DNA of 64,000 bases from a phage. A model generated the notes under the pieces. It was not told where the DNA came from. It made no database searches and was given only the letters and a program-made list of their open reading frames with translations. Positions 3,532-59,386 of the stretch are shown here, one piece after another; the stretch's first letter is position 1; each line of letters starts with the position of its first letter. The stretch lies in the sequence record PZ583743.1; one strand, written 5' to 3'. The translations under genes and the position numbers were made by a program.

Positions 3532-4392
3532 TTACACCGCCATTTTTCCTTTAATAGGAGGGTGAGATACATAGTTGTTAAGAACAAAATTATGCGGCTT
3601 TGCGAATTGACTCAACCAAAATACCTGTGATTCTGTGTCCCATTCATCAAATTCATCTGGAAATTTTAATTGTAATTCGCATAAATCCATAGGTTCACGA
3701 CGCAAAATTTCTTTACATTGTTCTATGTGATTCATATAGATATGAGTATTACCACCAGAAAATATCAAATCTCCTGGAATAAGATTACACATCTTAGCTA
3801 CAATATGAACTAATGCAGCATATGATGCAATGTTGAATGGCAAGCCCAAGAACACGTCAACACTTCTTTGATACCACTGCAAATCCAAATAGCCATTACG
3901 CACATTAAACTGATAGAACATATGACAAGGCGGTAATGCCATTTGCTTGAGTTCAGCTGGATTCCATGCTGAAACAATTTGACGTCTATCATTTGGCAGT
4001 TTTTTAATACGATCAACAACTTCTATAATTTGGTCTACACCGCCAAAATCACGCCATTGTTTTCCATAAATTGGACCAAGTTCACCGCTATGATATCCTA
4101 AATCTTTTGCTTGATTTTCGTAATTTTCATCCCAGACTGTTTTGCCTTGAATTAATGAATCATGCTGAATTAATCGTAAATCATTTACGTTAGTACTTCC
4201 TGATAAAAACCATATTAGCTCAGCAATGCAAGCTTTCCAGGCGAGCTTCTTAGTTGTTACTGCAGGAAAACCTTTACTTAAATCCCAGCGTAATTTAGTA
4301 CCGAACAGAGCAATTGTTCCTGTGCCTGTTCGGTCATCAGTTTCATAGCCATTTTCAAAAATGTCTTTAATTAAATCTTGGTATTGTTTCAT
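3532..4392 (-). CDS. td: Thymidylate synthase, uninterrupted (no group I intron)
   Basis: 286 aa continuous ORF with ThyA motifs (LPPCH, FNIASYA); T4 Td is 286 aa. Confidence 0.95.
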   Translation of the reverse strand: MKQYQDLIKDIFENGYETDDRTGTGTIALFGTKLRWDLSKGFPAVTTKKLAWKACIAELIWFLSGSTNVNDLRLIQHDSLIQGKTVWDENYENQAKDLGYHSGELGPIYGKQWRDFGGVDQIIEVVDRIKKLPNDRRQIVSAWNPAELKQMALPPCHMFYQFNVRNGYLDLQWYQRSVDVFLGLPFNIASYAALVHIVAKMCNLIPGDLIFSGGNTHIYMNHIEQCKEILRREPMDLCELQLKFPDEFDEWDTESQVFWLSQFAKPHNFVLNNYVSHPPIKGKMAV

Positions 4393-5986: not shown

Positions 5987-6229
5987 TCAAACAGACTTTT
6001 TCACAGTTTTCCAATCAGCTTTAAACTGATCAACATCAGAATGGTAAATCCAGAATCCTGCGCTTTCTCCATCCTCATAAAGAGGGCATCCATCACATTC
6101 ATCTTCCCATCCCATATCACGTAAAAGATGTTCAGCTTTTTCAACGAGTTCAGAATCTTTACCGATGATATTAAAATACCATTTACCTCTAACTTCTGAA
6201 TCTTTGATGCTCTGGCGTTGTAATCTCAT
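5987..6229 (-). CDS. Hypothetical protein (frd-upstream cluster)
   Basis: 80-aa ORF with AAGGAG SD and its own early promoter at 6255..6284. Confidence 0.55.
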   Translation of the reverse strand: MRLQRQSIKDSEVRGKWYFNIIGKDSELVEKAEHLLRDMGWEDECDGCPLYEDGESAGFWIYHSDVDQFKADWKTVKKSV

Positions 6230-6254
6230 TTTATTCTCCTTAGTTGATAGGGTA

Positions 6255-6284
6255 ATAGTATCACACTACTACCCTTCTGTAAAC
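6255..6284 (-). promoter_or_regulatory. T4-type early promoter (GTTTAC, 18 nt, TACTAT)
   Basis: Minus-strand -35 at 6279..6284 and -10 at 6255..6260; precedes ORF 5987..6229. Confidence 0.55.
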
Positions 6285-6661
6285 TACTTTTTGAAAGTTT
6301 TTCGCAAAAGTTCAATGATTTCATCTACATTGTTTTCGTCAACAATGCAGTGAATTTTTGTTACGCCAGAAACCTTGTCTTCGACTTCATCTTCAGAAGT
6401 CGGTTCTTTATACTCGCAGAAACAATGAAATTCGTCTTCGCAAATTTCTGAAAGTCTATCACAAAGGTGAAAATGCTTTCCATTAGCGCATTCAATGTGT
6501 TTTACCGCTTTAAATCCATTAGCAAAGAAAACTTCTTTAACTTCAAACCATCCGCCATTTTCTCGAATAATTTTAACTATTGACGCGTTGGATCGTGGGC
6601 TATAATTAATAAATGTATCAATAAGTCTTGGAACAAGTTCATACTTTTTGCCAATATACAT
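6284..6661 (-). CDS. Hypothetical Cys/His-rich protein (frd-upstream cluster)
   Basis: 125-aa ORF; HIECANGKHFHLCDRLSEICEDEFHCFCEY segment suggests metal binding. Confidence 0.5.
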   Translation of the reverse strand: MYIGKKYELVPRLIDTFINYSPRSNASIVKIIRENGGWFEVKEVFFANGFKAVKHIECANGKHFHLCDRLSEICEDEFHCFCEYKEPTSEDEVEDKVSGVTKIHCIVDENNVDEIIELLRKTFKK

Positions 6662-6936: not shown

Positions 6937-6979
6937 ATTATTTTCCTCTTTAATCATCAGCAGTATTGCCGATAGTTGT

Positions 6980-7009
6980 ATAGTACCACAGTATGCTTTG
7001 GTTGTAAAC
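6980..7009 (-). promoter_or_regulatory. T4-type early promoter in cassette A
   Basis: -35 GTTTAC at 7004..7009, 18-nt spacer, -10 TACTAT at 6980..6985; directly downstream of the gene 32 terminator. Confidence 0.6.
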
Positions 7010-7033
7010 CGTTTTGTGAAAAAATTTTTGAAA

Positions 7034-7059
7034 TAAAAAAGGGGACCTCTAGGGTCCCC
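7034..7059 (-). terminator. Rho-independent terminator after gene 32
   Basis: Hairpin ggggacc-tcta-ggtcccc at 7041..7059 followed on the minus strand by a U-run (plus A-run 7034..7040). Confidence 0.7.
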
Positions 7060-7081
7060 AATTAATTAGTAATATAATCTA

Positions 7082-8035: not shown

Positions 8036-8074
8036 TGTATGACCTCATAGCTGGTCAGTGAGATAATTATAATC

Positions 8075-8082
8075 TATTTATA
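8075..8082 (-). promoter_or_regulatory. Late promoter TATAAATA for gene 32
   Basis: Exact TATAAATA on minus strand about 85 nt upstream of gene 32 ATG. Confidence 0.5.
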
Positions 8083-8090
8083 ATAAGCAA

Positions 8091-8744
8091 TTAGTACTTA
8101 CAAGATTTCACAGTTTCAATAAAAACACTTTTAGCTTTCTGCGAATCAATATTTAAAATTTTTCTATAAGCCTTTAACTTTATAGAATAATTATTCCAGA
8201 CTAAATTATCAGTCTGTTCGTCATGTTTATCAATTATATTTAAAAACGAATCAAGCAAGATAAACGTCTCAAACGAAATTATATTCGATTGAAGTAGTTT
8301 AAAAATATAACTTGATTGAACTTTTGGATTATACTCAAAGATTTCTTTAAAAGCAGAAACTTCAACTTTTTTACTAAAATAATAAATGTTGCGAATATCT
8401 TCTTCAAACTTAAATTTAATTTGCTTTAAGCGTCCGATATATTCACGATAAAACACAAGTGCATCAGCGTCAGAGATGTCACCAATCCAAGCATCTTGGT
8501 TAGCAACAAGATTGCTTATAAAGATTAAAGCAAGTTCCTTTAATTTATATTTTTCTGATAACTTCTGGAAAAAATACTTATCCCTTCGCTTTTGATAAGC
8601 GGCATCAGACACCCGCATGCACCAATTATACTTAATTACATCATACTTTCCATTCATATGTTGTTTTATCATTAAGTATAATTTATAAACTGATTTACCA
8701 TCAATGTATCTTTCACCACCAGCAGGCATGCGGAGTTTAATCAT
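8091..8744 (-). CDS. 59: Helicase loader gp59
   Basis: 217 aa, same length as T4 gp59; immediately upstream of gene 32. Confidence 0.9.
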   Translation of the reverse strand: MIKLRMPAGGERYIDGKSVYKLYLMIKQHMNGKYDVIKYNWCMRVSDAAYQKRRDKYFFQKLSEKYKLKELALIFISNLVANQDAWIGDISDADALVFYREYIGRLKQIKFKFEEDIRNIYYFSKKVEVSAFKEIFEYNPKVQSSYIFKLLQSNIISFETFILLDSFLNIIDKHDEQTDNLVWNNYSIKLKAYRKILNIDSQKAKSVFIETVKSCKY

Positions 8745-10356: not shown

Positions 10357-13300
10357 ATGGCCGAGATTAAAAGAAAGTTCAGAGCAGAAGATGGTCTGGA
10401 CGCAGGTGGCGATAAAATAATCAATGTAGCTTTAGCTGATCGTACCGTAGGAACTGACGGTGTTAACGTTGATTACTTAATTCAAGAAAACACAGTTCAA
10501 CAATATGATCCAACTCGTGGATATTTAAAAGATTTTGTAATCATTTATAATAATCGTTTTTGGGCAGCAACGGATAATATTCCAAAACCTGCTGGAAGTT
10601 TTAATAGAATTCGTTGGAAAGCATTACGTACTGATGCCGTATATACAACCGTATCATCTGGACCATATCAATTAAAATCCGGAGAAGCAATTTCAGTAGA
10701 TACATCAGTTGGTAATGACATTGAGTTTAATTTACCACCTTCTCCGCTTGATGGAGAAACCGTAATAATTCAAGATATTGGTGGAAAACCTGGTATAAAT
10801 CAGGTTAAAATAAATTCTTCAAATCAGAGTATTGTTAATTTTAGAGGTGAACAAGTACGTTCAGTTCTAATGACTCATCCAAAGTCACAGATGATATTCA
10901 TTTTTAATAATCGTTTGTGGCAAATGTATGTTGCTGATTATAGCAGAGAAGCTGCGATTGTTACTCCATCGACTGCATATCAAGCACAATCTAATGATTT
11001 TATCGTGCGTAGATTTACTTCCGCTGCGCCGATTAATATTAAACTTCCGAGATTTGCTAATCATGGCGATATTATTAATTTCGTTGATTTAGATAAATTA
11101 AATCCACTTTATCATACAATTGTCACGACATATGATGAAACAACTTCAGTACAAGAAGTTGGAACTCATTCTATTGAAGGCCGTACATCGATTGACGGTT
11201 TCTTGATGTTTGACGATAATGAAAAATTATGGAGATTGTTTGACGGGGATAGTAAAGCACGTTTACGCATTATAACAACTAATTCTAATATTCGTCCAAA
11301 TGAAGAAGTTATGGTATTTGGTGCGAATAACGGAACAGCCCAAACAATTGAACTTCAGCTTCCAACCGATATTTCCATTGGTGATACTGTTAAAATTTCC
11401 ATGAATTACATGAGAAAAGGACAAACAGTTAAAATCAAAGCTGCCGGTGAAGATAAAATTGCTTCTTCAGTTCAATTGCTGCAATTCCCAAAACGCTCAG
11501 AATATCCACCTGAAGCTGAATGGGTGACTGTCCAAGAATTAGTTTTCAATGGTGAAACTAATTATGTTCCGGTTTTACAACTTGCTTATATAGAAGATTC
11601 TGACGGAAAATACTGGGTTGTACAACAAAACGTTCCAACGGTTGAAAGAGTCGATTCTTTAAATAATTCTACTAGAGCAAGATTAGGCGTAATTGCTTTA
11701 GCTACACAAGCTCAAGCTAACGTCGATTTAGAAAATTCTCCGCAAAAAGAATTAGCAATTACACCAGAAACATTAGCTAACCGTACTGCTACAGAAACTC
11801 GTAGAGGTATCGCAAGAATAGCAACTACTGCTCAAGTAAATCAGAACACTACATTCTCTTTTGCAGATGACCTTATCATCACTCCTAAAAAGCTGAATGA
11901 AAGAACTGCTACAGAAACTCGTAGAGGTGTTGCTGAAATTGCTACACAGCAAGAAACTAACGCAGGTACTGATGATACTACAATCATCACTCCTAAAAAG
12001 CTTCAAGCTCGTCAAGGTTCTGAATCATTATCTGGTATTGTAACCTTTGTATCTACCGCAGGAGCTACTCCAGCTTCTAGTCGTGAATTAAATGGTACGA
12101 ATGTTTATAATAAAAACACTAATAATTTAGTTGTTTCGCCTAAAGCTTTGGATCAGTATAAAGCTACTCCAACCCAACAAGGCGCAGTAATTTTAGCAGT
12201 TGAAAGTGAAGTAATTGCTGGACAAAGCCAAGAAGGATGGGCAAATGCGGTTGTAACGCCAGAAACGTTACATAAAAAGACATCAACTGATGCAAGAATT
12301 GGTTTAATTGAAATTGCTACACAAAGTGAAGTTAATACAGGAACTGACTATACTCGTGCAGTCACTCCTAAAACTTTAAATGACCGTAGAGCAACTGAAA
12401 GTTTAAGTGGTATAGCTGAAATTGCTACACAAGTTGAATTCGACGCAGGCGTCGACGATACTCGTATCTCTACACCATTAAAAATTAAAACCAGATTTAA
12501 TAGTACTGATCGTACTTCTGTTGTTGCTCTATCTGGATTAGTTGAATCAGGAACTCTCTGGGACCATTATACCCTTAATATTCTTGAAGCAAATGAGACA
12601 CAGCGTGGTACACTTCGTGTAGCTACACAAGTTGAAGCTGCTGCAGGAACATTGGATAATGTTCTAATAACTCCTAAAAAGCTTTTAGGTACTAAATCTA
12701 CTGAAGCACAGGAAGGCGTTATTAAAGTTGCAACTCGGTCTGAAACTGTAGCTGGAACGTCAGCAAATACTGCTGTATCTCCAAAAAATTTAAAATGGAT
12801 TGTGCAGAGTGAACCAACTTGGGCAGCAACTACTCTGATAAGAGGGTTTGTTAAAACTTCATCTGGTTCAATTACATTCGTTGGTAATGATACCGTTGGT
12901 TCAACGCAGTCATTAGAATCATATGAGAAAAATGGTTATGCAGTATCACCATATGAATTAAATCGCGTATTAGCAAATTATTTGCCATTAAAAGCAAAAG
13001 CCGTAGATAGTAATTTATTAGATGGTCTAGATTCGCTCCAGTTCATTCGTAGGGACATTGCACAAACAGTTAATGGTTCACTAACCTTAACGCAACAAAC
13101 GAATCTGAGTGCCCCTCTTGTATCATCTAGTACTGCTACGTTTGGTGGATCAGTTTCGGCAAATAGTACATTAACTATTTCTAATACTGGAACGGCAACT
13201 CGTCTGATTTTTGAAAAAGGACCTCAAACTGGGACGAACCCAGCTCAAACGATGACAGTCAGAGTGTGGGGAAATCAATTCAGCGGTGAATCGGACACAA

Positions 13301-23254: not shown

Positions 23255-23295
23255 TTTCTAATCTCCGTAATTCTGTATCAGTAGTTGATAGTTGT

Positions 23296-23325
23296 ATAGT
23301 ACCACAGTATGCTTTGGTTGTAAAC
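23296..23325 (-). promoter_or_regulatory. T4-type early promoter for motA (cassette B)
   Basis: -35 GTTTAC at 23320..23325, 18 nt, -10 TACTAT; near-identical to cassette A. Confidence 0.6.
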
Positions 23326-23350
23326 AGTTTTGTGAAAAAAATTTTGAAAT

Positions 23351-23376
23351 AAAAAAGGGAGAGCCTCAGCTCTCCC
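23351..23376 (-). terminator. Rho-independent terminator after gene 52 / small ORF
   Basis: Hairpin gggagagc-ctca-gctctccc at 23357..23376 followed on the minus strand by a U-run. Confidence 0.7.
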
Positions 23377-23381
23377 TAAAA

Positions 23382-25978: not shown

Positions 25979-26089
25979 TCAGGGAGTATAAAATCCAAAT
26001 GCAGTTGTTGACCATCCCATCCAATATGGGAAATTTGCACCAATGTAAAACATAAGAATATAAAACCAACCACTCAGCAAATTCATCAT
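25979..26089 (-). CDS. Tiny hydrophobic peptide (36 aa)
   Basis: ATGA overlap with upstream stop; part of cluster of tiny membrane ORFs as T4 ndd.2-ndd.6. Confidence 0.35.
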   Translation of the reverse strand: MMNLLSGWFYILMFYIGANFPYWMGWSTTAFGFYTP

Positions 26090-26283
26090 TTTACACCATT
26101 CCAAATTGTTTCAACCACAGATTTTAAACCATTTTGGTGAATATCCATTCCGACAACCGCCATCAAATAGATTCCAACCACAACTGACCCCAAGGCGAAA
26201 ATCAGCATGAAAATGAATAAAGCAGGAAAAATATTATCAAAAAACCATTCCATAAATGTAAAAGCACTGCGTTTACGCTTCAT
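26086..26283 (-). CDS. Small membrane protein
   Basis: ORF track 26086..26304; GAGGAAAA SD precedes ATG at 26283; two TM segments. Confidence 0.5.
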   Translation of the reverse strand: MKRKRSAFTFMEWFFDNIFPALFIFMLIFALGSVVVGIYLMAVVGMDIHQNGLKSVVETIWNGVK

Positions 26284-26290
26284 ATTTTCC

Positions 26291-26404
26291 TCACATAAAT
26301 CCAAAGTAAGCGTTTAATACATCAATCATTAAAACGATTGGGAATATACTTAAAACTACTAGTATTATAACTACATTCCATATAGCTTTAACAATCTTTT
26401 TCAT
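26291..26404 (-). CDS. Tiny hydrophobic peptide (37 aa)
   Basis: First ORF after early promoter 26433..26462. Confidence 0.35.
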   Translation of the reverse strand: MKKIVKAIWNVVIILVVLSIFPIVLMIDVLNAYFGFM

Positions 26405-26432
26405 TTTCTATTCCTCCGTAGTTGATAGAGTA

Positions 26433-26462
26433 ATAATACCACAGAGGAACAGTCTTGTAAAC
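26433..26462 (-). promoter_or_regulatory. T4-type early promoter (cassette E)
   Basis: -35 GTTTAC at 26457..26462, 18 nt, -10 TATTAT; precedes tiny hydrophobic ORFs. Confidence 0.5.
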
Positions 26463-26564
26463 AACTTTTTTAAAAATATTCGTAATAAATGTGAATACCA
26501 ATCACCACTGCCGAAACTTGTGCAACCCACCACGCACAAGCAATAAGCACAGAATTAAAAATTT

Positions 26565-26651
26565 TCATAATAACCTCATCACAAAAGTAAATGTTAAACA
26601 AATTAATGGAATACTAATTAACCAAACGAAACACCACCATAATGAACTCAT
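26565..26651 (-). CDS. Tiny hydrophobic peptide (28 aa)
   Basis: MSSLWWCFVWLISIPLICLTFTFVMRLL; coupled to neighbours. Confidence 0.3.
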   Translation of the reverse strand: MSSLWWCFVWLISIPLICLTFTFVMRLL

Positions 26652-26679
26652 AGTTCAATCTCAACGATTTTCATTTTAC

Positions 26680-26886
26680 TCAATAATCCGCTAAAAGATC
26701 GACGATTGCATCACGAAGACACTTATTCGCAATACGTTTAAGAGCAATTTCAGTTTCTGGAGCATTTTGAATAATCATTGAATTCAATTCAGCCTCAGCA
26801 AACTGAAGTTCTTTAACTAATTCAGCTTTATATTTTCCTTGCCCTTTCTTAGCTTTTGCTCGTTTTAATTCAGCTGTAGTAAACAT
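26680..26886 (-). CDS. Hypothetical protein
   Basis: ORF track 26680..26898; conserved leader tttggagaataaaATG places start at 26886. Confidence 0.5.
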   Translation of the reverse strand: MFTTAELKRAKAKKGQGKYKAELVKELQFAEAELNSMIIQNAPETEIALKRIANKCLRDAIVDLLADY

Positions 26887-26920
26887 TTTATTCTCCAAAT
26901 CCGTATCAGTTGATAGTTGT

Positions 26921-26950
26921 ATAGTACCACAGTCCTTGTGGTATGTAAAC
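26921..26950 (-). promoter_or_regulatory. T4-type early promoter (cassette C)
   Basis: -35 GTTTAC at 26945..26950, 18 nt, -10 TACTAT; leader identical to cassette D. Confidence 0.6.
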
Positions 26951-26967
26951 CGTTTTGTGAAAATTTT

Positions 26968-27525
26968 TTAAATGGAAAGATACCATCCGTTGTAGTTGCT
27001 TTTTCTTACAACCTTACGAAGGTCTTCTCTATCACCGATGAACTTCGGAGTGTACTGGATGACACCTGGATGAATTTCTTTAGTGTTGAATATAATTATA
27101 CAGTCAGCGACTTGGTGATTCAGAATGGGCCCTAGATTTATTCCAGAACCGTATGGATACTCCCCGCTGCATCCGGTTGTTACCGAAATCCAACGTGAGT
27201 CAGTTTGATGTGTTTTGACTTCTACACGAAGCCCACAGTATTTTGGATGCGCCAATACATCCCATGCGTAAGTATACGGGTCATTAACATCCTCTTGGCC
27301 TTTGTTAACATATCCGCTTAGCCAATCTGCTACAAAAAATTCTGCGTACACAGCGATACGGCATCTTTCAATAACTTCTGCTTTATCCTGATTAGGATTT
27401 TGTTTTAAAGAGTATCTTGCTGTATCAGCAATTTTGACCTTCATTTCACTAGTCAAATCATTGTTCGATAGGGTAAATGTCGGAATCTGAAATAGTCTCT
27501 GTAAACCTGGATTCGTTTTCTGCAT
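26968..27525 (-). CDS. denB: Probable endonuclease IV DenB
   Basis: 185 aa, same length as T4 DenB; downstream of rIIB; assignment by position and size. Confidence 0.6.
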   Translation of the reverse strand: MQKTNPGLQRLFQIPTFTLSNNDLTSEMKVKIADTARYSLKQNPNQDKAEVIERCRIAVYAEFFVADWLSGYVNKGQEDVNDPYTYAWDVLAHPKYCGLRVEVKTHQTDSRWISVTTGCSGEYPYGSGINLGPILNHQVADCIIIFNTKEIHPGVIQYTPKFIGDREDLRKVVRKSNYNGWYLSI

Positions 27526-27583: not shown

Positions 27584-27608
27584 TAAAACAAAAGGGCCGA
27601 AGCCCTTT
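27584..27608 (-). terminator. Rho-independent terminator with UUCG tetraloop
   Basis: Minus strand GGGCUUCGGCCC followed by UUUUGUUUU, after stop at 27612. Confidence 0.6.
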
Positions 27609-27611
27609 ATT

Positions 27612-27863
27612 TTATTTGAATTGTGCAATTCTTTTCTCTAAACAATCTGCGTAAGATTTCATTGAGATAAACTGCGAAAGCAGCAGTTCTTGCTCAACTG
27701 CATTAACCATTGAAAACTTTTCACTTTCTAAAAATTTGCTCAGTGCATTAATTTTGAGCATTAATTGATCGTATTCTTCTTTTACTCGTGCTTGATAACC
27801 TAACATAATTTTCCTCAGTAATGGGCCGAAGCCCTTATTTAAATTGTTCAGTAACGTCTTCAA
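27612..27863 (-). CDS. Hypothetical protein (T4 rIIB.1 position)
   Basis: 83-aa ORF; followed by UUCG hairpin terminator. Confidence 0.5.
   Translation of the reverse strand: MKTLLNNLNKGFGPLLRKIMLGYQARVKEEYDQLMLKINALSKFLESEKFSMVNAVEQELLLSQFISMKSYADCLEKRIAQFK
27823..27834 (-). promoter_or_regulatory. UUCG-tetraloop hairpin at rIIB 3' end
   Basis: gggccgaagccc; no U-run. Confidence 0.4.
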
Positions 27864-28773
27864 CTACTTCGTATTGACAGGTACGCATTTTAGCATCGTT
27901 GTAATCAATCGGAATTGATACTACATCACGCGGATGTACTTTAACTTTTACAACTCGGCTGGTTGAACTACCAAAGTGACGAATATAAGATTTAGAACAC
28001 ACATGCAGACCACGAGAACAAGTTTGTGTATCATCGTCATTCACACGAGTACGTGGCATTTTAACTACTTTACCAGGGCTGTTATCAAAAGTATTTGAAT
28101 GACAGTCAAAGTAATTGCTGCGAACTACTTTCCAAGCATAGAAGTAGCCGTCTTCTGTAATTTCAATATCGTTTGCTACCAAGAAATCAAAGAGTCGAGA
28201 TACTGCTTTTTGGCTTGGGTTTTCCAGCAGATTTTCCAGGAACGGAAAATAAAATTCAAAGTTTTCGCCTTTTTCCATCGAATCGAGAATACGATCAACT
28301 AAACCAGACCGCAATTCAATGTTTTGATAGAACAAGCTTCCACCTTCAATTCGAACATCACCCGAAATATATTTTTCAACAGCGCGACGAACGTTAATTT
28401 TTTGTGCCGCTTCTTCTAATTTATCTGCAACAAGCAGGTTAAGAATTTCCTGGAAGTTTGAATGAGTATTAGGAGTTGCGTTATAAGTTACGCCGTCAAC
28501 AGTAATTGAAATGAATTTTTTAGATGCATTCCAAATAATGTCAGATTTAGCAACTGGAGCAATAGCTACATCACTCTTAACTTCAACTGTAATGTCACCG
28601 CTAATGGTAACTTTAGAGCGTTCAGCTTCTTTAGCATTTTTCAAAACACGACGGATTGTGTCAACCGATACACCTTGCCAATCAGCCAATTCCTGTTGGG
28701 TATAATTACCGCTTGAATACAGTTTAACAATTTCAGCTTGTTCGTTTTTGGTCAGGCATTTAATATTGTACAT
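27835..28773 (-). CDS. rIIB: Lysis inhibition / Rex exclusion protein rIIB
   Basis: 312 aa; MYNIKCLTKNEQAEIVKLYSSGNYTQQELADWQGVSVDTIRRVL... matches T4 rIIB. Confidence 0.95.
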   Translation of the reverse strand: MYNIKCLTKNEQAEIVKLYSSGNYTQQELADWQGVSVDTIRRVLKNAKEAERSKVTISGDITVEVKSDVAIAPVAKSDIIWNASKKFISITVDGVTYNATPNTHSNFQEILNLLVADKLEEAAQKINVRRAVEKYISGDVRIEGGSLFYQNIELRSGLVDRILDSMEKGENFEFYFPFLENLLENPSQKAVSRLFDFLVANDIEITEDGYFYAWKVVRSNYFDCHSNTFDNSPGKVVKMPRTRVNDDDTQTCSRGLHVCSKSYIRHFGSSTSRVVKVKVHPRDVVSIPIDYNDAKMRTCQYEVVEDVTEQFK

Positions 28774-31231: not shown

Positions 31232-33051
31232 TACTGGCTCATCCATTCTTTACGAAGGTCAGCATTATCTCCCATGAGCATTTCAAAAAGCTCTTTCCAG
31301 TTCTCAGGAAGTTTAACAACATCATATACTGGGTTTTGAATCATCTCACGATATTCAGATTTTTCCAAAGAGCCAAGTCCTTTAATATAACGGATGCTAT
31401 GTTTAGGTAGAGCATCTTTGGCACTCTCATATTCAGCGACTGTATAAAACCATTCTTGTTTTTTACCGACCTGAGCGATGATTACAGGAGTTTTGACAAA
31501 GCGAATTCTTCCTTGTTCAAACAGTTCTGGCCAATTACTAAAAAATCCGAGCAGAGAAGGATAAATGCTTCCTAGACCATCATGGTCAGCATCAGTCATA
31601 ATAGCAATATTATGATAATTCAAGTTTTCAGCTTTTTCACCGAGAACTAATCCAGTGATTGCGCAAATATCAAACAGTTCTTTGTTTTTAAGCATGTCAG
31701 CATATGACATGCCCCAACTGTTGAGAACTTTACCACGTAATGGATAACCACCGTGAAGTTCTTTATCACGAACATCAATAAGATATCCGATAGCCGAATC
31801 ACCCTCAGTCAAGAAAAGAGTAGTATCAGCATCTTTACCACAAAGATTCGCTTTAATATGTTTATGAACCTTAGCTTTAGAAGCCTTTTTAGCTGCTTTA
31901 GTTTCTGCTGCTTTTTCTGCCGCTAATTTACGAGCCAAAGCAGCTTCAATAATCGGCATTAGAATTGCTTCATTATTTAGAATAGCACGTGAAATCTTTT
32001 TAGCATCAAGTTGAATATGACTACGGATTTCACCAAATGGAGAAGTCAAACGCTCTTTAGTTTGAGAATCAAATCGCATGTTTTTCATATCACGGACAAA
32101 CATAACGATAGTCAAACATTCTTTAACGCGTGCTTTAGTCACATCAATTTTGAACTTACGTTTGATTTGTGGAATAAGGTCTTCACAAATATCATCCATA
32201 ACACAGTCAATGTGATGGCCACCATTCTTAGTGTGAATGTTATTCACATAAGTTAATTGACGAAAACCATCCGGTGAACGACCAACCGCAATAGAGCAAT
32301 TTTCTTGTTCTTGAACGATAGCATGCTCATCATATTGACGTGCATATTTCTTAAAATTGCCCTGAACCTTTTTACCATTAAAGGTAAATTGAATATCAGG
32401 ATAAACTACTGCAAGTGTCTGGAGACGATCTAGTGTAATGTCAAGATAAACTTGAGATAGCTCATTAGTTTCAAATGACATAAAATCAGGAATGAAAGTA
32501 ACACGAGTTCCTTTCCATTTTCCAGGAATAGTTTCCCATGATTTATTTTCCATGCCATTTGAACAACGAACTACAATATTATTTTGACCATCGCCAGTTT
32601 CACCGACAAACATCACAGAAAAAATGTTAGTTAAACTAGAACCAACACCGTTCATACCGCCGGTGACGCGTTCTTTATCATCACCAAAGTTACCACCTGC
32701 TTTTGGAATAGTCCATGCAGCAACAGGACCAGGAATTTCTTCACCAGTAGGTGTTTTAACCATCGCCTGTGGAATACCGCGACCGTTATCTTCAACTGTT
32801 ACTTGATTGTTTTTGATAGTAACATTAATTTTATTTGCGAATTTAAACTTAGTACGAATACCTTCATCTACTGAGTTATCGATAATTTCATCAATAAGCT
32901 TAACAAGACCAGGTACATACTGAACACTTTCCCATTTACCAAACAGAAAGCGCTCATGCATTTCATTAGCGGAAGAGCCAATGTACATGCCGCTACGCTT
33001 TTTGATATGTTCAATATCGCTCAGAATTTTAATTTCATTCTTAATCATCAC
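31231..33051 (-). CDS. 39: DNA topoisomerase II large subunit, unsplit gene 39 (T4 39 plus 60 equivalent)
   Basis: 606 aa continuous ORF with GyrB-like ATPase and Toprim segments; no hop or inserted ORF. Confidence 0.9.
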   Translation of the reverse strand: MMIKNEIKILSDIEHIKKRSGMYIGSSANEMHERFLFGKWESVQYVPGLVKLIDEIIDNSVDEGIRTKFKFANKINVTIKNNQVTVEDNGRGIPQAMVKTPTGEEIPGPVAAWTIPKAGGNFGDDKERVTGGMNGVGSSLTNIFSVMFVGETGDGQNNIVVRCSNGMENKSWETIPGKWKGTRVTFIPDFMSFETNELSQVYLDITLDRLQTLAVVYPDIQFTFNGKKVQGNFKKYARQYDEHAIVQEQENCSIAVGRSPDGFRQLTYVNNIHTKNGGHHIDCVMDDICEDLIPQIKRKFKIDVTKARVKECLTIVMFVRDMKNMRFDSQTKERLTSPFGEIRSHIQLDAKKISRAILNNEAILMPIIEAALARKLAAEKAAETKAAKKASKAKVHKHIKANLCGKDADTTLFLTEGDSAIGYLIDVRDKELHGGYPLRGKVLNSWGMSYADMLKNKELFDICAITGLVLGEKAENLNYHNIAIMTDADHDGLGSIYPSLLGFFSNWPELFEQGRIRFVKTPVIIAQVGKKQEWFYTVAEYESAKDALPKHSIRYIKGLGSLEKSEYREMIQNPVYDVVKLPENWKELFEMLMGDNADLRKEWMSQ

Positions 33052-33075: not shown

Positions 33076-33101
33076 ATTATACTCCGGTAATCATAAAGCT
33101 A
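33076..33101 (-). promoter_or_regulatory. Possible middle promoter for gene 39 (imperfect MotA box plus TATAAT)
   Basis: Minus strand TAGCTTTA, 12 nt, TATAAT; box has one mismatch to TGCTTtA. Confidence 0.35.
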
Positions 33102-33118
33102 AAGGCCCGAAGGCCTTT
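33101..33118 (-). terminator. UUCG-tetraloop hairpin after lipoprotein ORF
   Basis: aaaggcc-cgaa-ggccttt overlapping the stop at 33118. Confidence 0.45.
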
Positions 33119-33387
33119 TATTTAAAACGGATAGTCGAATCCTTAAAGAACAGCCCAGAACATACTGTTCCTTCTACTTTCTGCCCAGTAGGTCCAATAG
33201 CACGAAATCCAGTATGTTGGAAATCATTTTCAGAACAACCGAACCAGTTATATCCAGTGATTTCAATATTAGTAAAACCGCTTGAAGACAAAACTTTGGT
33301 TGCATTATCAGCATCAGTACATCCTACTAAAGACACTGCTAATACTAATGCTGCGATAGAACGATTAATATATTTCATAGTTTTCAC
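33118..33387 (-). CDS. Putative lipoprotein
   Basis: 89 aa; signal peptide with lipobox LVGC. Confidence 0.55.
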   Translation of the reverse strand: MKTMKYINRSIAALVLAVSLVGCTDADNATKVLSSSGFTNIEITGYNWFGCSENDFQHTGFRAIGPTGQKVEGTVCSGLFFKDSTIRFK

Positions 33388-34565: not shown

Positions 34566-34664
34566 TACAATTTCCTCGTTAATTGAACATTGGAGCGATG
34601 CGTTTCAGAAGAGTAGCAGCACCTTTGGCAAATTTTCCATTTTATTCTCCAAATTATTTTCTAT

Positions 34665-34707
34665 ATCAGTAGTTGATATTGATATAGTACCATAATCAAC
34701 TACTGAT
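34665..34707 (-). repeat. Perfect 13-bp inverted repeat with 17-nt loop in promoter-like cassette
   Basis: atcagtagttgat ... atcaactactgat; loop contains tatagtacca; followed by ggagaataaaATG and an 11-codon ORF. Confidence 0.5.
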
Positions 34708-34737
34708 GTATATAGTTTTATGAAAAAATTTTAAACT

Positions 34738-35229
34738 TTATGCATAGCGAGCTTTGCTGTAGTGTTTAATCCAACTTTCAGGAATGACTTTGTATGTTCC
34801 TAAAAATACCGCGTTGTATAACTTAACGCCATCTTCTACCCATTGATCAGTAATGTATGCACACATAGCGCGAGTACGCCGAGGAAGTGGTTGTCCACCT
34901 TCGATAAATTCAAACTCATAAGGAGCAATGAACTTGATAGCTCGACCGAGTTTCCACTTAAAGTCTACACCTACATGCGAAGTATCAATCGTTTCAATTC
35001 CTTTAGCGGGAACAGCTTTCAAAAACGCAGATTCAAGAAATTTCGCGCGAACATAACCAAACTGAGGTTTAGACTTTCCATCTTTAGGAATGATACGCAC
35101 TTTTACTTCAGAATCTTCATCTTTAACGCCGTGTTTAAGCTGAATGCTTACAATTTCGACCAATTTTCCTGCTGCTTTAGAACGGGATTTATCAGATACA
35201 CGAGCAATTTCACCAATATTAATAATCAT
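34738..35229 (-). CDS. MotB-like protein
   Basis: 163 aa (T4 MotB 162 aa); early promoter at 35274..35303; shares C-terminal TDQWVEDGV motif with next ORF. Confidence 0.55.
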   Translation of the reverse strand: MIINIGEIARVSDKSRSKAAGKLVEIVSIQLKHGVKDEDSEVKVRIIPKDGKSKPQFGYVRAKFLESAFLKAVPAKGIETIDTSHVGVDFKWKLGRAIKFIAPYEFEFIEGGQPLPRRTRAMCAYITDQWVEDGVKLYNAVFLGTYKVIPESWIKHYSKARYA

Positions 35230-35273
35230 AGTTATCTCTCACTTGTTAAAAAGATTTTATACTCCACAGGACC

Positions 35274-35303
35274 ATTATACTCTGGTCCCAAGAGTTTGTA
35301 AAC
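35274..35303 (-). promoter_or_regulatory. T4-type early promoter for MotB-like gene
   Basis: -35 GTTTAC at 35298..35303, 18 nt, -10 TATAAT at 35274..35279. Confidence 0.6.
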
Positions 35304-43779: not shown

Positions 43780-43989
43780 TTAAATTACATGACTATTTAT
43801 AATAAATTCTTGCGGAACGTTAAAATACCCAATTTTAGTTAATATAACAACATCACCGTTAATAATTACCGGAGAATAATCGGCTGGAGCATTAAACTTC
43901 CAATGAGCTCTAATATTATATCCATCAGAACCAAATGCTCAACTAGCCGGTCTCCCGGCTTTTTGCCATGCATAAAAATCAAATTTCAT
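43780..43989 (-). pseudogene. ORF interrupted by a single in-frame TGA (16 codons, TGA, 52 codons); candidate pseudogene or readthrough gene
   Basis: ATG overlaps upstream stop; MKFDFYAWQKAGRPAS, TGA, AFGSDGYNIRAHWKFNAPADYSPVIINGDVVILTKIGYFNVPQEFIINSHVI; no start codon after the TGA. Confidence 0.4.
43794..43801 (-). promoter_or_regulatory. Late promoter TATAAATA for soc
   Basis: Exact TATAAATA on minus strand 30 nt upstream of soc ATG, inside the 3' end of the interrupted ORF. Confidence 0.7.
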
Positions 43990-44186
43990 TTTGAATGCTC
44001 TATAATTAATTTTAAGGCTTCTTCATGCACCTTACCTAATTGTATATGTCCAGTTTTAATTGTGTAAGCTTTGTGGAGCTGATTAGATAGGAGCTCGTAT
44101 GTGAGCTCCTTGTCATAATTTTTAAATAGCTGGTCAATACGTTTCTTGTGGGCTTTCTTAAGTTGACGTTTATTTAAACGAGCCAT
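43986..44186 (-). CDS. Hypothetical basic protein
   Basis: 66-aa ORF coupled to gene 56 stop. Confidence 0.5.
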   Translation of the reverse strand: MARLNKRQLKKAHKKRIDQLFKNYDKELTYELLSNQLHKAYTIKTGHIQLGKVHEEALKLIIEHSK

Positions 44187-44704
44187 TAATAACCTCGGTC
44201 TTGACGAGCGAAGTTTTCAGCATTTTTCAGATAATAAAGTTTAAAGATTTCTTCAGCCGTAAGACCGAGACCTTGGAACATGTTCAGAACGAAATGAAGA
44301 ATATCAATCATTTCGAATTTAATTTCCAACTGGTCTTGTGGAGACAAATCAGTAATCAGAGTTTCACGTCGTTCACCATGTTGAGCTTTCCAAGGCTTCC
44401 ATACAGCAGATGCATCTTTTTCACCATTGCTCATACCACCAAGAGAAGTCAATAGTTCGCGGAATTCATCATCAATATAATCTTTCTGATTACGCAGCCA
44501 ATCAACAACTTCACCCGCAGTAGCCAAATCATCAGGATGACGGTTATATTCAGGTTTATCTTTAGCTAAACGAACCTGTAGAGATTTCTGCATATCAAGC
44601 ATAACCTGCAGCGGGTCTTTTTCATCACCGAGAATATCCCAGTATTCATTTTGAGCTTTATCAGCGCCTTCGATCAGTTGACTACATTCGTTAAAGTAAG
44701 CCAT
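44186..44704 (-). CDS. 56: dCTPase/dUTPase gp56 (MazG-like)
   Basis: ORF track 44186..44719; start at 44704 (MAYFNECSQLIEG...) gives 172 aa vs T4 gp56 171 aa. Confidence 0.8.
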   Translation of the reverse strand: MAYFNECSQLIEGADKAQNEYWDILGDEKDPLQVMLDMQKSLQVRLAKDKPEYNRHPDDLATAGEVVDWLRNQKDYIDDEFRELLTSLGGMSNGEKDASAVWKPWKAQHGERRETLITDLSPQDQLEIKFEMIDILHFVLNMFQGLGLTAEEIFKLYYLKNAENFARQDRGY

Positions 44705-44764: not shown

Positions 44765-46104
<1,340 letters not shown>

Positions 46105-46129
46105 TATATCATCCTCAGCAATTTATTTT

Positions 46130-46159
46130 ATAATACCATAACAAGCTGAGAAAGTAAAC
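46130..46159 (-). promoter_or_regulatory. T4-type early promoter for the nuclease-like ORF and dam
   Basis: -35 GTTTAC at 46154..46159, 18 nt, -10 TATTAT. Confidence 0.55.
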
Positions 46160-46177
46160 AAATTTATGAAATTTGTG

Positions 46178-49019: not shown

Positions 49020-49048
49020 AACAATCTCCTCATTTAACCAACAAGACT

Positions 49049-49078
49049 ACTATACCATAGTCTTGTCAGCTTGTAAAC
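49049..49078 (-). promoter_or_regulatory. T4-type early promoter for dmd
   Basis: -35 GTTTAC at 49073..49078, 18 nt, -10 TATAGT. Confidence 0.55.
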
Positions 49079-50877: not shown

Positions 50878-52033
50878 TTAACTGATCTAGGTCAGTTTCT
50901 AAATCAGCTGCTGATTTACTTTTACTTTCTGGAGATTTAAATTTTTCAACCTTTGAGTTAATCAATTCATCAACTTCAGCTTCAACAATTTCATTACTAT
51001 CAATAGCACCTAATTGATAAGCACGTTTAATAGCATCTCGGAATGGTTGATGCTTAAATAAAGGACCCCAGAATGTAGTGCAGTTGGTATCTTTTGCACG
51101 CCAAGATTTTTCTTCGCGAATCATCTCGCCTGTTTCTTCGTCAAGAAATTCACGAGCATACCAGCCATTTTTAGGTTTTACTACAAATCCTAATTCAAGA
51201 GCCATATCTAACAATCCAGAATAAGGATCGATACCACCGTCAAATTTAACATCAATAAAGAATTTACTTTTTTCTTTAACGGTACGAGATTTTTCTACAT
51301 TTAGAACAAATTGATACCCCTGAAGATCAGAACCATCTTTAATCTGACGCTTACCGATAATGAATACAGTATCAGCTGAATACATTACGCCTGTACCACC
51401 TGTCATCACGGTTTTACTAAACATTTCAATGGTTTCAATTGTATGGTTAACCGCAACACATGGAATATTTTTAATGCTAAAATAAGGAGTAACAATACGG
51501 AATAATGACTTCAGTGATTTAGCACGAGTCATATCTGCCACAGATTTTTCATTCAAGGCATCTTCCGTTTCTTTCTTAGAAGCCATATTACCAATTGAGT
51601 CGATGAATACAATAACCTTTTCACCACGCTCAATAGCTTCAAGCTGATTCACCATATCAATTTTCAGTTGTTCAACTGACTGGATTGGCGTATGAATTAC
51701 TCGTTCTGGGTCAACTCCCATGGATCGCAAATAAGCTGGAGTAATACCAAATTCGCTATCATAGAATAGACAAACTGCATCAGGATATTTGTTCAAATAT
51801 GCCGCAACCATAGTCAAAGACATATTTGATTTAAAGTGTTTAGAAGGCCCTGCGAAAATAGTTAAACCGGACTGCATTCCACCATCAATCGCACCGGAAA
51901 TAGCGATATTAAGCATTGGAATTTTTGTACGGATTACATCCTTTTCATTAAAGAATTTAGATGTAGTCAGTTCAGCAGTCATTTTAGAAGTGGAAGCTTT
52001 AATCAAACGGGATTTTAAATCTGCAATAGACAT
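50852..52033 (-). CDS. uvsX: Recombinase UvsX (RecA-like)
   Basis: 393 aa; Walker A GPSKHFKS; near-identical to T4 UvsX. Confidence 0.95.
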   Translation of the reverse strand: MSIADLKSRLIKASTSKMTAELTTSKFFNEKDVIRTKIPMLNIAISGAIDGGMQSGLTIFAGPSKHFKSNMSLTMVAAYLNKYPDAVCLFYDSEFGITPAYLRSMGVDPERVIHTPIQSVEQLKIDMVNQLEAIERGEKVIVFIDSIGNMASKKETEDALNEKSVADMTRAKSLKSLFRIVTPYFSIKNIPCVAVNHTIETIEMFSKTVMTGGTGVMYSADTVFIIGKRQIKDGSDLQGYQFVLNVEKSRTVKEKSKFFIDVKFDGGIDPYSGLLDMALELGFVVKPKNGWYAREFLDEETGEMIREEKSWRAKDTNCTTFWGPLFKHQPFRDAIKRAYQLGAIDSNEIVEAEVDELINSKVEKFKSPESKSKSAADLETDLDQLSDMEEFNE

Positions 52034-52110
52034 TCATTTTTTCCATAGGCATCATTATATTTTCCTCACTGGTTAAAGATAGAATAATTATAACACAATA
52101 AATTTAGGCA

Positions 52111-52959
52111 TTAATCAACTGCTATTGGATGAATAGCATTAAACTTATGAAATGCTTCTGATTTTTCTTTACGCGAAACACACATGCGAAGAACCTTTAA
52201 TGGCTCGTCTTCTTCACCCAACGATTTTCGTTTTTCAATATTCGATGTTTTCCAACGAGCTTGCTCTGGAAACTCTCTATTGATTTGCTCAAGCGCTCTA
52301 TTATGTTTAGAATTACTACGAATTGAACTACATCCACCGGGAGCGTGTGATTTTCCAGATACAACTAGATATTTGAACAAGGCCAAATGCGGATAACCTT
52401 GATTAATTAAATTGAGAAATGCATACATATCTTCGCATAAATCAATTTTTCCATACCCAATTTGTTCTGTCGTAAGTTTTCCGAGGTCATACCATGTATT
52501 CGTGAATCCATATGAGTTTTCACGATAATTACCCCAAGATGAAGTAATTTTAAAAATTGGTAGACGAGCATGACCGTGATAATACCCGCAATCCATGGCA
52601 TCTTCAACATATTGAATCAATTCATAGAACTGTTCACGAGTTAATTGATTAATTTTATCTACACGCCGTTTATCGTCTCTCTTTCGTATTGAACTCATAC
52701 GAATAGTAGTATCATCATCAATCATCCAGATTCGTTGACCTGCATACATATCAGTAATTGCTTTACGAGTACCAGCAATTCCATTAACATCATCAGGAAT
52801 AGTTATAATTTTAGCTCTAGACCCATAAGCGTCATAATAAGCTTTTTCTTCGTGTTTACGTACTACAATATGAGGTTCATAATCAGTTGGAAACATATCA
52901 AGGGCAGAAACTGCCCCTACGCGTTGATAACTTGGAATTACGAATTGAATCATTTCCAC
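52111..52959 (-). CDS. GT-A fold glycosyltransferase at the T4 beta-gt locus
   Basis: 282 aa; FVIPSYQR and IWMIDDDTT (DxD) motifs; between uvsX and 42 where T4 has the 351-aa GT-B beta-gt. Confidence 0.6.
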   Translation of the reverse strand: MEMIQFVIPSYQRVGAVSALDMFPTDYEPHIVVRKHEEKAYYDAYGSRAKIITIPDDVNGIAGTRKAITDMYAGQRIWMIDDDTTIRMSSIRKRDDKRRVDKINQLTREQFYELIQYVEDAMDCGYYHGHARLPIFKITSSWGNYRENSYGFTNTWYDLGKLTTEQIGYGKIDLCEDMYAFLNLINQGYPHLALFKYLVVSGKSHAPGGCSSIRSNSKHNRALEQINREFPEQARWKTSNIEKRKSLGEEDEPLKVLRMCVSRKEKSEAFHKFNAIHPIAVD

Positions 52960-53690
52960 TCACCGTTATAATCTTTTTTCGCAATATGAATTTCGCCAGT
53001 TTTCCACCAATGGTCAACCAAATAAAAATGACGGGAATACACATGAAGGCTCCCGACATTCCATATAATGGAACCTGCTTTATACTGACGAGTTGAATCA
53101 CCTGCATTCAAATCAGATACTAATTTATCTAGTACATATTTTTGCCATGCATAATCATTACGGAATCCGAAGACCACGTCATTTGAACGCATGTTAACCA
53201 CTGCATTAATTTTCTTATCACGAATCAGGTACTGTACTGTATTAGTACACATGAAATCCGACATGCCATCTTTATTGTAGTCAAACTGCATGGATGGACG
53301 AGTATAAATCATGATACCGCGTCGAGAATCAGGATTTTGACCAAGTTCAGCTAAACACATATCATACTGGGCATAGTTATCTTCTGACCAGATGGCCCAA
53401 CCATAATTCGAGTTAATTTCGCCTTTAGAAGATGCTACCTGCTGCCAAATCTTCGGCGTTTCACCTGGAATATCTTTAACAAACAAACTTTGAGACTTAT
53501 ACCATTCAAGTTCACGCTGAATGTATTCATCATTAAGAGCGCCAAAAATAAAAGGTTCATCTGCTACAAATGATGCACCAATAATTTCAATAGTTTTAAC
53601 ACCGGTTTTATCAATTACGAAATCTTTTTCCTTTAATGCAAGACCCAAATCAAGACGGATTTCTTCAACTGTCATATAATCGTTAATCAT
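52950..53690 (-). CDS. 42: dCMP hydroxymethylase gp42
   Basis: 246 aa, same length as T4 gp42; thymidylate-synthase-like fold. Confidence 0.9.
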   Translation of the reverse strand: MINDYMTVEEIRLDLGLALKEKDFVIDKTGVKTIEIIGASFVADEPFIFGALNDEYIQRELEWYKSQSLFVKDIPGETPKIWQQVASSKGEINSNYGWAIWSEDNYAQYDMCLAELGQNPDSRRGIMIYTRPSMQFDYNKDGMSDFMCTNTVQYLIRDKKINAVVNMRSNDVVFGFRNDYAWQKYVLDKLVSDLNAGDSTRQYKAGSIIWNVGSLHVYSRHFYLVDHWWKTGEIHIAKKDYNGEWK

Positions 53691-54102: not shown

Positions 54103-54483
54103 TCACTTAGTCAAATTTTTTACACATGAATTATAAGAATTTACTACATACTCCATCGGAGCATTTTTACCAGTACGCCATTGATAATTATTAGCCCAAT
54201 TTGCCCAAAGTTCAGCGCAGTAGTTTTCAATTTTTTCTTCGCGTGTAATTACATCCGAATTACGATATGCTTGAGCAGATTCATCTGGACGAATAGCCTC
54301 GTCAAAATTCGCCTGCATTTGTTCTACTGTCTGTTTTGGAGCTTCTTTATAACACTTGACATTAGGATTATAAAATTTGCTTGAACAGTTTACAATTTTT
54401 CCTACATCAGACTGATTTACTACCGGTCCTTGAGCTACACAGCCAGTAAGACCCAATGCAATAACCAAAATAGCGATTTTCAT
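54103..54483 (-). CDS. Putative lipoprotein (126 aa)
   Basis: ORF track 54103..54672; promoter 54518..54547 and leader tttggagaATG place start at 54483; signal peptide with lipobox LTGC. Confidence 0.55.
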   Translation of the reverse strand: MKIAILVIALGLTGCVAQGPVVNQSDVGKIVNCSSKFYNPNVKCYKEAPKQTVEQMQANFDEAIRPDESAQAYRNSDVITREEKIENYCAELWANWANNYQWRTGKNAPMEYVVNSYNSCVKNLTK

Positions 54484-54517
54484 TTCATTCTCCAAATCCG
54501 CATCAGTTGATAGTTGT

Positions 54518-54547
54518 ATAGTACCATAGAAGAACAGTCTTGTAAAC
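54518..54547 (-). promoter_or_regulatory. T4-type early promoter (cassette D) for lipoprotein ORF
   Basis: -35 GTTTAC at 54542..54547, 18 nt, -10 TACTAT; leader matches cassette C. Confidence 0.6.
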
Positions 54548-54630
54548 AGTTTTGTGAAAAAATTTTTAATGAATTCCAGGGGTCCAGAAACATCTGTTTT
54601 TCCTAAGTATAGATTTATATTACTTGTATG

Positions 54631-54651
54631 AAAAAGGGACCCGGAGGTCCC
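54631..54651 (-). terminator. Rho-independent terminator after gene 43
   Basis: Hairpin gggacc-cgga-ggtccc at 54636..54651 followed on the minus strand by UUUUU. Confidence 0.7.
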
Positions 54652-57398: not shown

Positions 57399-57420
57399 TT
57401 GATATATTATACTCCAAATA

Positions 57421-57436
57421 AGGGGCCGAAGCCCCT
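57421..57436 (-). terminator. UUCG-tetraloop hairpin after regA
   Basis: aggggc-cgaa-gcccct followed on the minus strand by UUAUUU. Confidence 0.5.
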
Positions 57437-57440
57437 TTGC

Positions 57441-57809
57441 TTAATTACCAATCGTATATTTAGGAACGAGTTTCCATTCATGTTTTTGCTTAAAAGAAAT
57501 AACTCGGAAGTTATTAGTTAAGTCTTTCATAAAAGTTCTTTGACCGGGAGCGATTTCAATCAGTCCCCAATCTTCTAACAGCCATGCAATCGAATCACGA
57601 CGAACTTCATCTTCTTCTGTCATTTCAACCTGGCGACCATCCATACGAAGCATTTCTTTAAAATGAACGATATAGTATAGTCCTTTTTTCTGGAGAATAT
57701 GACAGGATTGATACAGAACTTTATCTTTATTATTAGCAATTCCCATACGAGTCAAAGTTTCTTTAACTTTCAGAAAATCTTCAGGTTTTTTAAGAGTAAT
57801 TTCAATCAT
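57441..57809 (-). CDS. regA: Translational repressor RegA
   Basis: 122 aa, same length as T4 RegA; between 62 and 43. Confidence 0.85.
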   Translation of the reverse strand: MIEITLKKPEDFLKVKETLTRMGIANNKDKVLYQSCHILQKKGLYYIVHFKEMLRMDGRQVEMTEEDEVRRDSIAWLLEDWGLIEIAPGQRTFMKDLTNNFRVISFKQKHEWKLVPKYTIGN

Positions 57810-59335: not shown

Positions 59336-59369
59336 AATTTCCTCATTCAAGTTTTAGTGTAAATTATAA

Positions 59370-59383: not shown

Positions 59384-59386
59384 CTA

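Follow-up and report, generated by a model that had tools for sequence, protein, structure and literature searches.

Early promoter and leader units of the T4 type, mosaic in structure and followed by different small ORFs, in a Tequatrovirus genome

Regulatory cassettes called PeSLs were defined in the phages RB49 and phi1 as an early promoter with a stem-loop (upstream of it, between its boxes or over the -10), a Shine-Dalgarno sequence (SD) and an ATG; they concentrate in hyperplastic regions, where they recombine to delete, insert and exchange ORFans and to form mini-circles (Arbiol et al. 2010, PMC2839356). The definition was extended to the T4/PST pair with the consensus TTTACW-N17-TAYWAT, and Fig. 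6A of that study presents an exchange of ndd.4/ndd.5 in which these two phages are the partners (Comeau et al. 2014, PMC4122927). The early promoters of T4 are UP/-35/TGn/-10 promoters with additional consensus regions, some of which are stimulated by Alt ADP-ribosylation of RNA polymerase (Hinton review, PMC2988021). One of them, Pe26.4, was placed at map unit 27,044 in a T4 transcription study (PMC6024815).

Units of this kind recur in the phage DNA described here. The window, i.e., the complete stretch of 64,000 nucleotides that was analysed (PZ583743.1), is from a Tequatrovirus (T4-like) genome: a 2-kb query around the finding matched 638 phage records, the best of them at 97-98.5% identity in the denB-rIIB region, and BLAST against T4 showed that positions 139,065-168,903 followed by 1-36,530 of T4 are the collinear counterpart of the window. 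The minus strand holds most of its early genes, and rIIB lies at 27835-28773. Collinearity is interrupted at 658-714, 3831-3868, 8054-8095, 31566-31631, 43801-44223 and 52021-52968; these gaps coincide with the T4 mobile endonuclease genes mobE, I-TevI, segG, 60.1/mobA, segF and segA, which seem to be absent from the window. In place of the segA/beta-gt region, the window has about 950 bp with a 280-aa ORF (52953..52111). About 540 bp are inserted relative to T4 between dam and gene 61 (45544-46172, minus strand); the 186-aa ORF located there (46104..45544, minus strand) has its own early promoter, with the -35 at 46158, and this complete promoter-ORF module is absent from T4. An intact 65-aa membrane ORF at 26086-26283 (minus strand), found also in UFV-AREG1 and in the loci L010, L018 and L019, corresponds in the ndd.3/ndd.2a region of T4 to two short ORFs (26 and 25 aa in the scan), so that in the T4 reference it appears to be split or frameshifted. 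In addition, the homologue of tail-fibre gene 34 contains 3-4 diverged direct repeats of about 40 nt (11785-12683, plus strand; families D5 and D8).

The original prediction reported a promoter-leader repeat at 26891-26969 and 54490-54567, with related copies at 26405-26480 and 34650-34737. Exact string searches, shuffles and a repeat search confirmed the two main copies, both on the minus strand, and the two related copies are also present. The 39-nt string TGGTACTATACAACTATCAACTGATRCGGATTTGGAGAA, which includes the -10, the leader and the SD, has exactly two copies in the window, at 26891-26929 and 54488-54526 of the minus strand, where none is expected from 100 shuffles; over 49 nt, the identity of 26884-26932 and 54481-54529 is 94% (repeat search, family D4). 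The -35 segment TTTTCACAAAACKGTTTAC occurs without mismatch at 26945-26963, 54542-54560, 7004-7022 and 23320-23338, and with up to 3 mismatches it has 7 matches versus 0.15 expected. The copies at 7004-7022 and 23320-23338 had not been listed, nor had the pair 6971-7043/23287-23359 to which the repeat search led, and in which the upstream half of the frd.3 unit and the motA unit share 97% identity over 73 nt. That is, the four loci proposed were too few. The family has at least seven members in the window, namely ahead of the 68-aa ORF, imm.1, motA, frd.3, frd.1 and ndd.4, and upstream of cef, and about ten in the 118 kb of T4 that were scanned. In anchored pairwise comparisons over 70 nt, the units of the 68-aa ORF, imm.1, motA, frd.3 and cef share 64-90% mutual identity and those of ndd.4 and frd.1 form a linked pair; among generic early promoters the values are mostly 40-55%.

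The prediction of units with promoter, leader, SD and start codon on the transcribed (minus) strand is well supported. Each copy comprises, in this order, an A/T-rich block, (G)TTTACA, 17 nt, TGG-TACTAT, 25-43 nt, GGAG, 4-6 nt and ATG. The arrangement GTTTACA-N14-TGG-TACTAT, found at 26950-26921 and 54547-54518, is the -35/spacer/TGn/-10 configuration of T4 early promoters, and in both main copies AAAAAATTTTCACAAAAC adjoins the -35 on its upstream side, at the place of an A/T-rich UP element (-40..-60). The pattern GTTTACW-N14-KRK-TAYWRT has 15 matches in the window, all on the minus strand, versus 0.32 expected, and the window contains 18 promoter-ORF pairs in total. A generic sigma-70 consensus scan gave no enrichment over shuffles (73 found, 79 expected); because the DNA is AT-rich, such a scan is uninformative, and only the T4-specific pattern is informative. 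One detail of the prediction needs correction: the leader, SD and start codon are as proposed, but GGAGAA does not abut the ATG, since four bases (TAAA or TGAA) lie between them.

The unit ahead of the 68-aa ORF (26887-26980) is located between denB (27525..26968) and that ORF (26886..26680). It consists of the UP element (approximately 26980-26951), the -35 (G)TTTACA (26950/26949-26944), TGG with the -10 TACTAT (26929-26921), a predicted start near 26914, the leader (26914-26887) and, within it, GGAG (26896-26893). Its partner, between gene 43 and imm.1 (54484-54580), has the -35 TTTACA at 54546-54541, TGG with the -10 TACTAT at 54526-54518, a predicted start near 54511 and GGAG at 54493-54490. 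The ndd.4 unit (26405-26490; ORF 26404..26291) has its -35 at 26461-26456 and the -10 TATTAT at 26438-26433, and the unit between motB and cef (34641-34740) has the -35 TATACA at 34712-34707 and the -10 TACTAT at 34689-34684. For motA (23255-23377) the -35 is at 23324-23319 and the -10 at 23301-23296, preceded by an intrinsic terminator (23377-23356); for frd.3 (6937-7060) they are at 7008-7003 and 6985-6980, preceded by a terminator-like hairpin. Finally, the frd.1 unit (6230-6310) has its -35 at 6283-6278, the -10 TACTAT at 6260-6255 and the SD-to-ATG block GGAGAATAAAA at 6239-6229. All of these are on the minus strand.

In T4, the same units are found at the orthologous sites ahead of ndd.6 (with the -35 at 167085, the orthologue of the 68-aa-ORF unit), ndd.4, motA, frd.3, imm.1 and cef, and further members lie upstream of nrdC.10, nrdC.8, e.8 and mobD.5. 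The unit with its -35 at 23324 is the motA early promoter region. In the T4 imm.1 unit, the A that follows the TACTAT by 7 nt falls exactly on map unit 27,044. The imm.1 unit of the window (-35 at 54546) aligns with this T4 unit and is thus the orthologue of a recognised T4 early promoter, Pe26.4; the starts near 54511 and 26914 are predicted from this homology. With confidence, we assign to the units the predicted function of T4 early promoters with RegB-type translation-initiation regions. The proposal of a new cassette family is accordingly not borne out: what was seen belongs to the classical T4 early promoters, of which it forms a sub-family, and has been described before under the name of PeSL regulatory cassettes. 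Because both the anatomy and the exchange of the ndd.4/ndd.5 cluster are in the PeSL literature, the finding is a rediscovery.

The strong RegB/S1 cleavage sites of T4 early translation-initiation regions have the consensus GG*AGRAYARAA (Uzan & Miller review, PMC3014915). The block GGAGAATAAAA matches GGAGRAYARAA exactly. Only three exact matches exist in the window, at 26886-26896, 34640-34650 and 6229-6239, versus 0.39 expected, and all three are SD-ATG junctions of family members, the second being the GGAGAATAAAA block of the cef-upstream unit (34650-34640). The imm.1 copy, GGAGAATGAAA, has one mismatch to the consensus, as does the motA copy. The regB gene itself lies outside the window. 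The coincidence of the RegB consensus with the SD-ATG junction implies that function accounts, at least in part, for the sharing of SD and start codon, as a consensus that would serve fast translation followed by rapid inactivation by RegB.

The leaders of the 68-aa-ORF and imm.1 units (-35 at 26949 and 54546) showed no structure upon RNA folding (z near 0), and 17 of the 18 early leaders are unstructured. For this reason, a reading of the leaders as riboswitches, attenuators or 5'-hairpins was rejected. A scan of the whole window at the Rfam gathering thresholds returned no family. The only stable 5'-terminal hairpin among the 18 leaders is that of frd.3 (6948-6973, minus strand), AUCGGCA-auac-UGCUGAU, with -7.6 kcal/mol and z -3.35; it may be an mRNA stabiliser. 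Many early leaders (those of the promoters at 54546, 34712, 26949, 26461, 23324, 6283, 48574 and 36410) have in common a consensus similar to AUCAACUACUGAGGAG, and the sub-family leader resembles this consensus with an insertion of 9-15 nt (TACGGATTT and similar) before GGAG. A palindrome, TATCA-N2/5-TGATA, is located at +2..+16.

The element that names the PeSLs, the stem-loop, is clear only in the cef-upstream, motA and frd.3 units. In the first of these, a perfect 13-bp inverted repeat, ATCAGTAGTTGAT at 34665-34677 and ATCAACTACTGAT at 34695-34707, spans the -10 (folding z -5.5); the motA and frd.3 units have terminators upstream. The unit of the 68-aa ORF has a 7-bp stem, TACCACA/TGTGGTA, in its 17-nt spacer, a length that 25% of random windows reach. 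Within -75..+60 of the imm.1 unit, no stem reaches 6 bp, and the same holds for the ndd.4 unit. Folding of the 90-120 nt upstream revealed no convincing terminator adjoining the promoters at 26949, 54546, 34712 and 26461 (z -1.6, -1.5, +0.2 and -2.4, respectively), and the fold with z -2.4 lies within the ndd.5 coding region. Among these four, the sole adjacent terminator-like element is a GGGACC..GGTCCC hairpin near 54631-54650, about 90-100 nt upstream of the 54546 promoter. Stems that span the -10 were also seen in two other promoters on the minus strand, namely a 9-bp stem, ACAAGACTA/TAGTCTTGT, at the 49077 promoter (49042-49067) and a 6-bp stem, GGACCA/TGGTCC, at the 35302 promoter (35270-35289). 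A separate family of hairpins of the GGGCC-GAAG-GCCC type (AAAGGGCCGAAGCCCTTT) is found at 27591-27616, 27820-27845, 33101-33126, 57420-57445 and 59368-59393; of these, the one at 27591-27608 has a terminator score on either strand.

The cef-upstream unit had been described as a 13-bp perfect inverted repeat followed by GGAGAATAAA-ATG and an ORF of only 11 codons (34640..34605), possibly a cassette remnant. All of these features are present. The same element lies between motB and cef in T4, and its 11-codon ORF keeps position and length there, with 3 amino-acid differences (MENLPKVLLLF at 34605..34640, minus strand, versus MENSLKVLILF); the element is thus old. Over about 107 nt, the unit is paralogous to the promoter-leader of T4 e.8; the similarity reaches as far as ATGGAWAATT, i.e., codon 3, and stops there. 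Given this abrupt end, the ORF does look like a remnant, and the pattern would fit either a remnant or a recombination joint just inside an ORF. The possibility that its tail is the 3' end of e.8 was rejected, as no similarity extends past codon 3.

We compared the ORFs that follow the leader across genomes, and the same unit indeed precedes different ORFs. BLAST of the 49-nt -10-to-ATG unit against a phage collection found 533 copies in 348 records, among which phages of Escherichia, Shigella, Enterobacteria and Yersinia predominate. The comparison with IMG/VR comprised 20 loci from few contigs, and the breadth of the distribution consequently rests mainly on the phage-record BLAST. An identical leader (...CAACTGATACGGATTTGGAGAATAAA-ATG) stands ahead of at least six different, unrelated ORFs: the 68-aa ORF in the window phage and UFV-AREG1; an 87-aa ORF in L010, L018, L019 and L023; imm.1; a 78/85-aa signal-peptide ORF in L012, L013, L015 and L020; the 322-aa NrdC.10; and, in T4, an 8-codon mini-ORF. 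The 68-aa accessory ORF (MFTTAELKRAK..., 26680..26886, minus strand) belongs to phrog_4535, has no Pfam family and is absent from T4. The mini-ORF, MKIVEIEL (26648..26674, minus strand, in the window), equals the last 8 codons of the 87-aa ORF, which is intact in UFV-AREG1, L010, L018 and L019 and is cut by the locus end in L023; the mini-ORF is a deletion scar between AAATGAAA repeats.

The denB-ndd.6 locus has four arrangements behind one promoter, namely the mini-ORF and ndd.6 in T4; the 68-aa ORF, the mini-ORF and ndd.6 in the window phage; the 68-aa ORF, the 87-aa ORF and ndd.6 in UFV-AREG1; and the 87-aa ORF and ndd.6 in L010, L018 and L019, with L023 ending within the 87-aa ORF. The gene 43-imm.1 locus has two: in some phages, the 78/85-aa ORF is inserted between the leader and imm.1, with a flanking repeat of about 14 bp (ATGAAAATCG...). 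Where indel junctions were resolved, they are at 8-14-bp repeats around the ATG, outside the long promoter homology. Judging from these arrangements, ORFs are gained and lost precisely at the leader/ATG junction, and the promoter stays put.

These comparisons qualify what had been proposed about the ORFs. Both copies were said to drive accessory ORFs; the ORFs 26886..26680 and 54483..54103 exist and match phage protein families, but the second is the homologue of imm.1, a conserved T4 gene (54103..54483, minus strand; a 126-aa predicted lipoprotein with the lipobox MKIAILVIALGLTG before its C, DUF5481 in Pfam, phrog_1754). Acquisition of the ORFs as modules agrees with the presence of the same unit ahead of different ORFs; the units themselves, however, are at orthologous sites in T4 and hundreds of relatives, and recent acquisition does not hold for imm.1 and motA, which are conserved in T4. 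Nor does the unit look portable in the sense intended: because the units keep their orthologous positions and ORFs enter or are lost in the interval from the leader to the gene behind it, at the 8-14-bp repeats, the promoter is not seen travelling with each ORF. The repeat units are therefore real but already known, and the idea of modularity is backed by cross-genome data but published.

Part of the similarity among units is functional constraint, acting on the UP/-35/TGn/-10 elements and on the RegB/S1 consensus. If this were the whole explanation, the units would resemble one another purely because RNA polymerase, the ribosome and RegB/S1 recognise them, and would neither exchange sequence among themselves nor take part in gene shuffling. 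The conserved blocks do coincide with the UP, -35, TGn, -10 and SD/RegB consensus elements, and unstructured leaders are expected of selected translation-initiation regions. The spacers, however, vary freely among the 18 promoters and yet match in pairs. Those of motA and frd.3 are 100% identical over 23 nt, and the imm.1 unit combines the spacer of the ndd.4 unit (91%) with the -10..+16 segment of the 68-aa-ORF unit (100%). Moreover, the frd.3 spacer differs between the two phages despite orthologous flanks: in the window phage, frd.3 has the spacer and upstream block of motA, whereas the T4 spacer (agcataaagcttta) is that of the T4 nrdC.10 unit. Among the IMG/VR loci, five spacer types and five or six leader types reassort between genomes, and the joint is always within the shared core TGGTACTATACAACTATC. 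Identical non-consensus spacers exceed what promoter function alone would account for, and thus indicate recombination or gene conversion between units. We therefore regard a purely functional origin of the similarity as unlikely.

A different possibility is that the palindromic segment TATCA-N2/5-TGATA (at about +2..+16) is an operator for a phage or host DNA-binding protein, with a regulation of its own such as early shut-off or Alt responsiveness; the Hinton review (PMC2988021) lists early shut-off as unexplained, and likewise the promoter determinants of Alt stimulation. The segment is common to the 68-aa-ORF, imm.1, motA and cef-upstream units of the window and to most T4 members. However, the ndd.4 and frd.1 units lack its right half-site, L004 and L013 have a broken one (TATCAACTAATAC) although their promoters are otherwise intact, the spacing of the half-sites varies from 2 to 5 nt, no protein is known to bind it, and shared descent explains the similarity equally well; an operator is thus highly improbable. 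Another proposal, that a dedicated phage protein for recombination or regulation specifically recognises the core TGGTACTATACAACTATC together with the palindrome, is very unlikely as well; if true, gene shuffling or early shut-off would be an active, site-specific process and not a by-product of general homologous recombination. There is, lastly, scarcely any chance that the units are autonomous, self-inserting mobile elements of a MITE-like or homing type. Many dispersed copies with sharp similarity boundaries might suggest as much, but their orientation is always that of the early genes, they are always directly upstream of an ORF and at orthologous sites in T4 and relatives, and in the window sequence the similarity ends at the promoter and the start codon, and neither terminal inverted repeats nor target-site duplications surround the units.

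Taken together, the evidence makes it very probable that these are early promoter-leader units of the T4 type, mosaic by descent and exchange, that act as crossover points for ORFs as in the PeSL model. Host sigma-70 RNA polymerase would read them as immediate-early promoters, starting about 7 nt downstream of the -10. The transcript would begin with an unstructured leader of 25-45 nt, whose GGAG and A-rich tail (GGAGAATAAAA) would allow efficient translation, until the phage RegB/S1 endoribonuclease switches the early mRNAs off at GGAGAATAAAA within minutes. The high similarity within the sub-family would reflect common descent and repeated homologous recombination or gene conversion between units, generating the mosaics. 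Because up to about 100 bp of near-identical DNA precedes many genes, the units, together with the short repeats at the ATG ends, would be crossover points at which small ORFs are inserted, deleted and exchanged between co-infecting T4-like phages. Recombination specific to PeSLs we rate below promoter identity, since a stem-loop is present in some copies only and the junctions are at ATG-proximal repeats; with junctions at 8-14-bp repeats, deletion between short repeats or illegitimate recombination could explain the indels without a PeSL-specific process.

The analysis thus confirms that standard T4 early-promoter/leader units exist in the window phage and mark where small accessory genes come and go. 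For annotation, it provides predicted early transcription starts, likely RegB sites and three variable ORF slots, and it is a clean worked example of promoter mosaicism combined with ORF indels at the leader/ATG junction.

Among known systems, integron cassettes and the 'morons' of lambdoid phages are similar in outcome, i.e., small accessory ORFs behind a resident promoter, but this is an analogy only. No integrase appears in the ORF lists, the family searches or the T4 annotation of the regions examined, and no attC or attI was noticed when the sequence was read; here, unlike in integrons, the promoter repeats themselves give the homology. Like PeSLs, the units have the A/T-rich region, the sigma-70-like promoter, the SD and the start codon of the downstream ORF; they are in hyperplastic regions, beside ORF indels and replacements between close relatives; their chimeric structure implies recombination between cassettes; and the ndd.4/ndd.5 cluster of Fig. 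6A is bordered by the 26949 and 26461 units of the window. They differ from PeSLs in that only some copies have a convincing stem-loop, and in that the observed indel junctions are at short ATG-proximal repeats and not within the promoter. As with the RegB/S1 sites of T4, GGAGAATAAAA, a putative site, lies in the unstructured intergenic leader of early genes. With the T4 early promoters, such as Pe26.4 and that of motA, the units share the UP element, the -35 GTTTAC, the 17-nt spacer, TGn, the -10, the strand and the gene contexts. The window phage differs from T4 in the 68-aa ORF behind its ndd.6-proximal promoter and in the motA-type spacer of its frd.3 promoter; otherwise its units are nearly identical in sequence to their T4 orthologues, and nothing essential differs.
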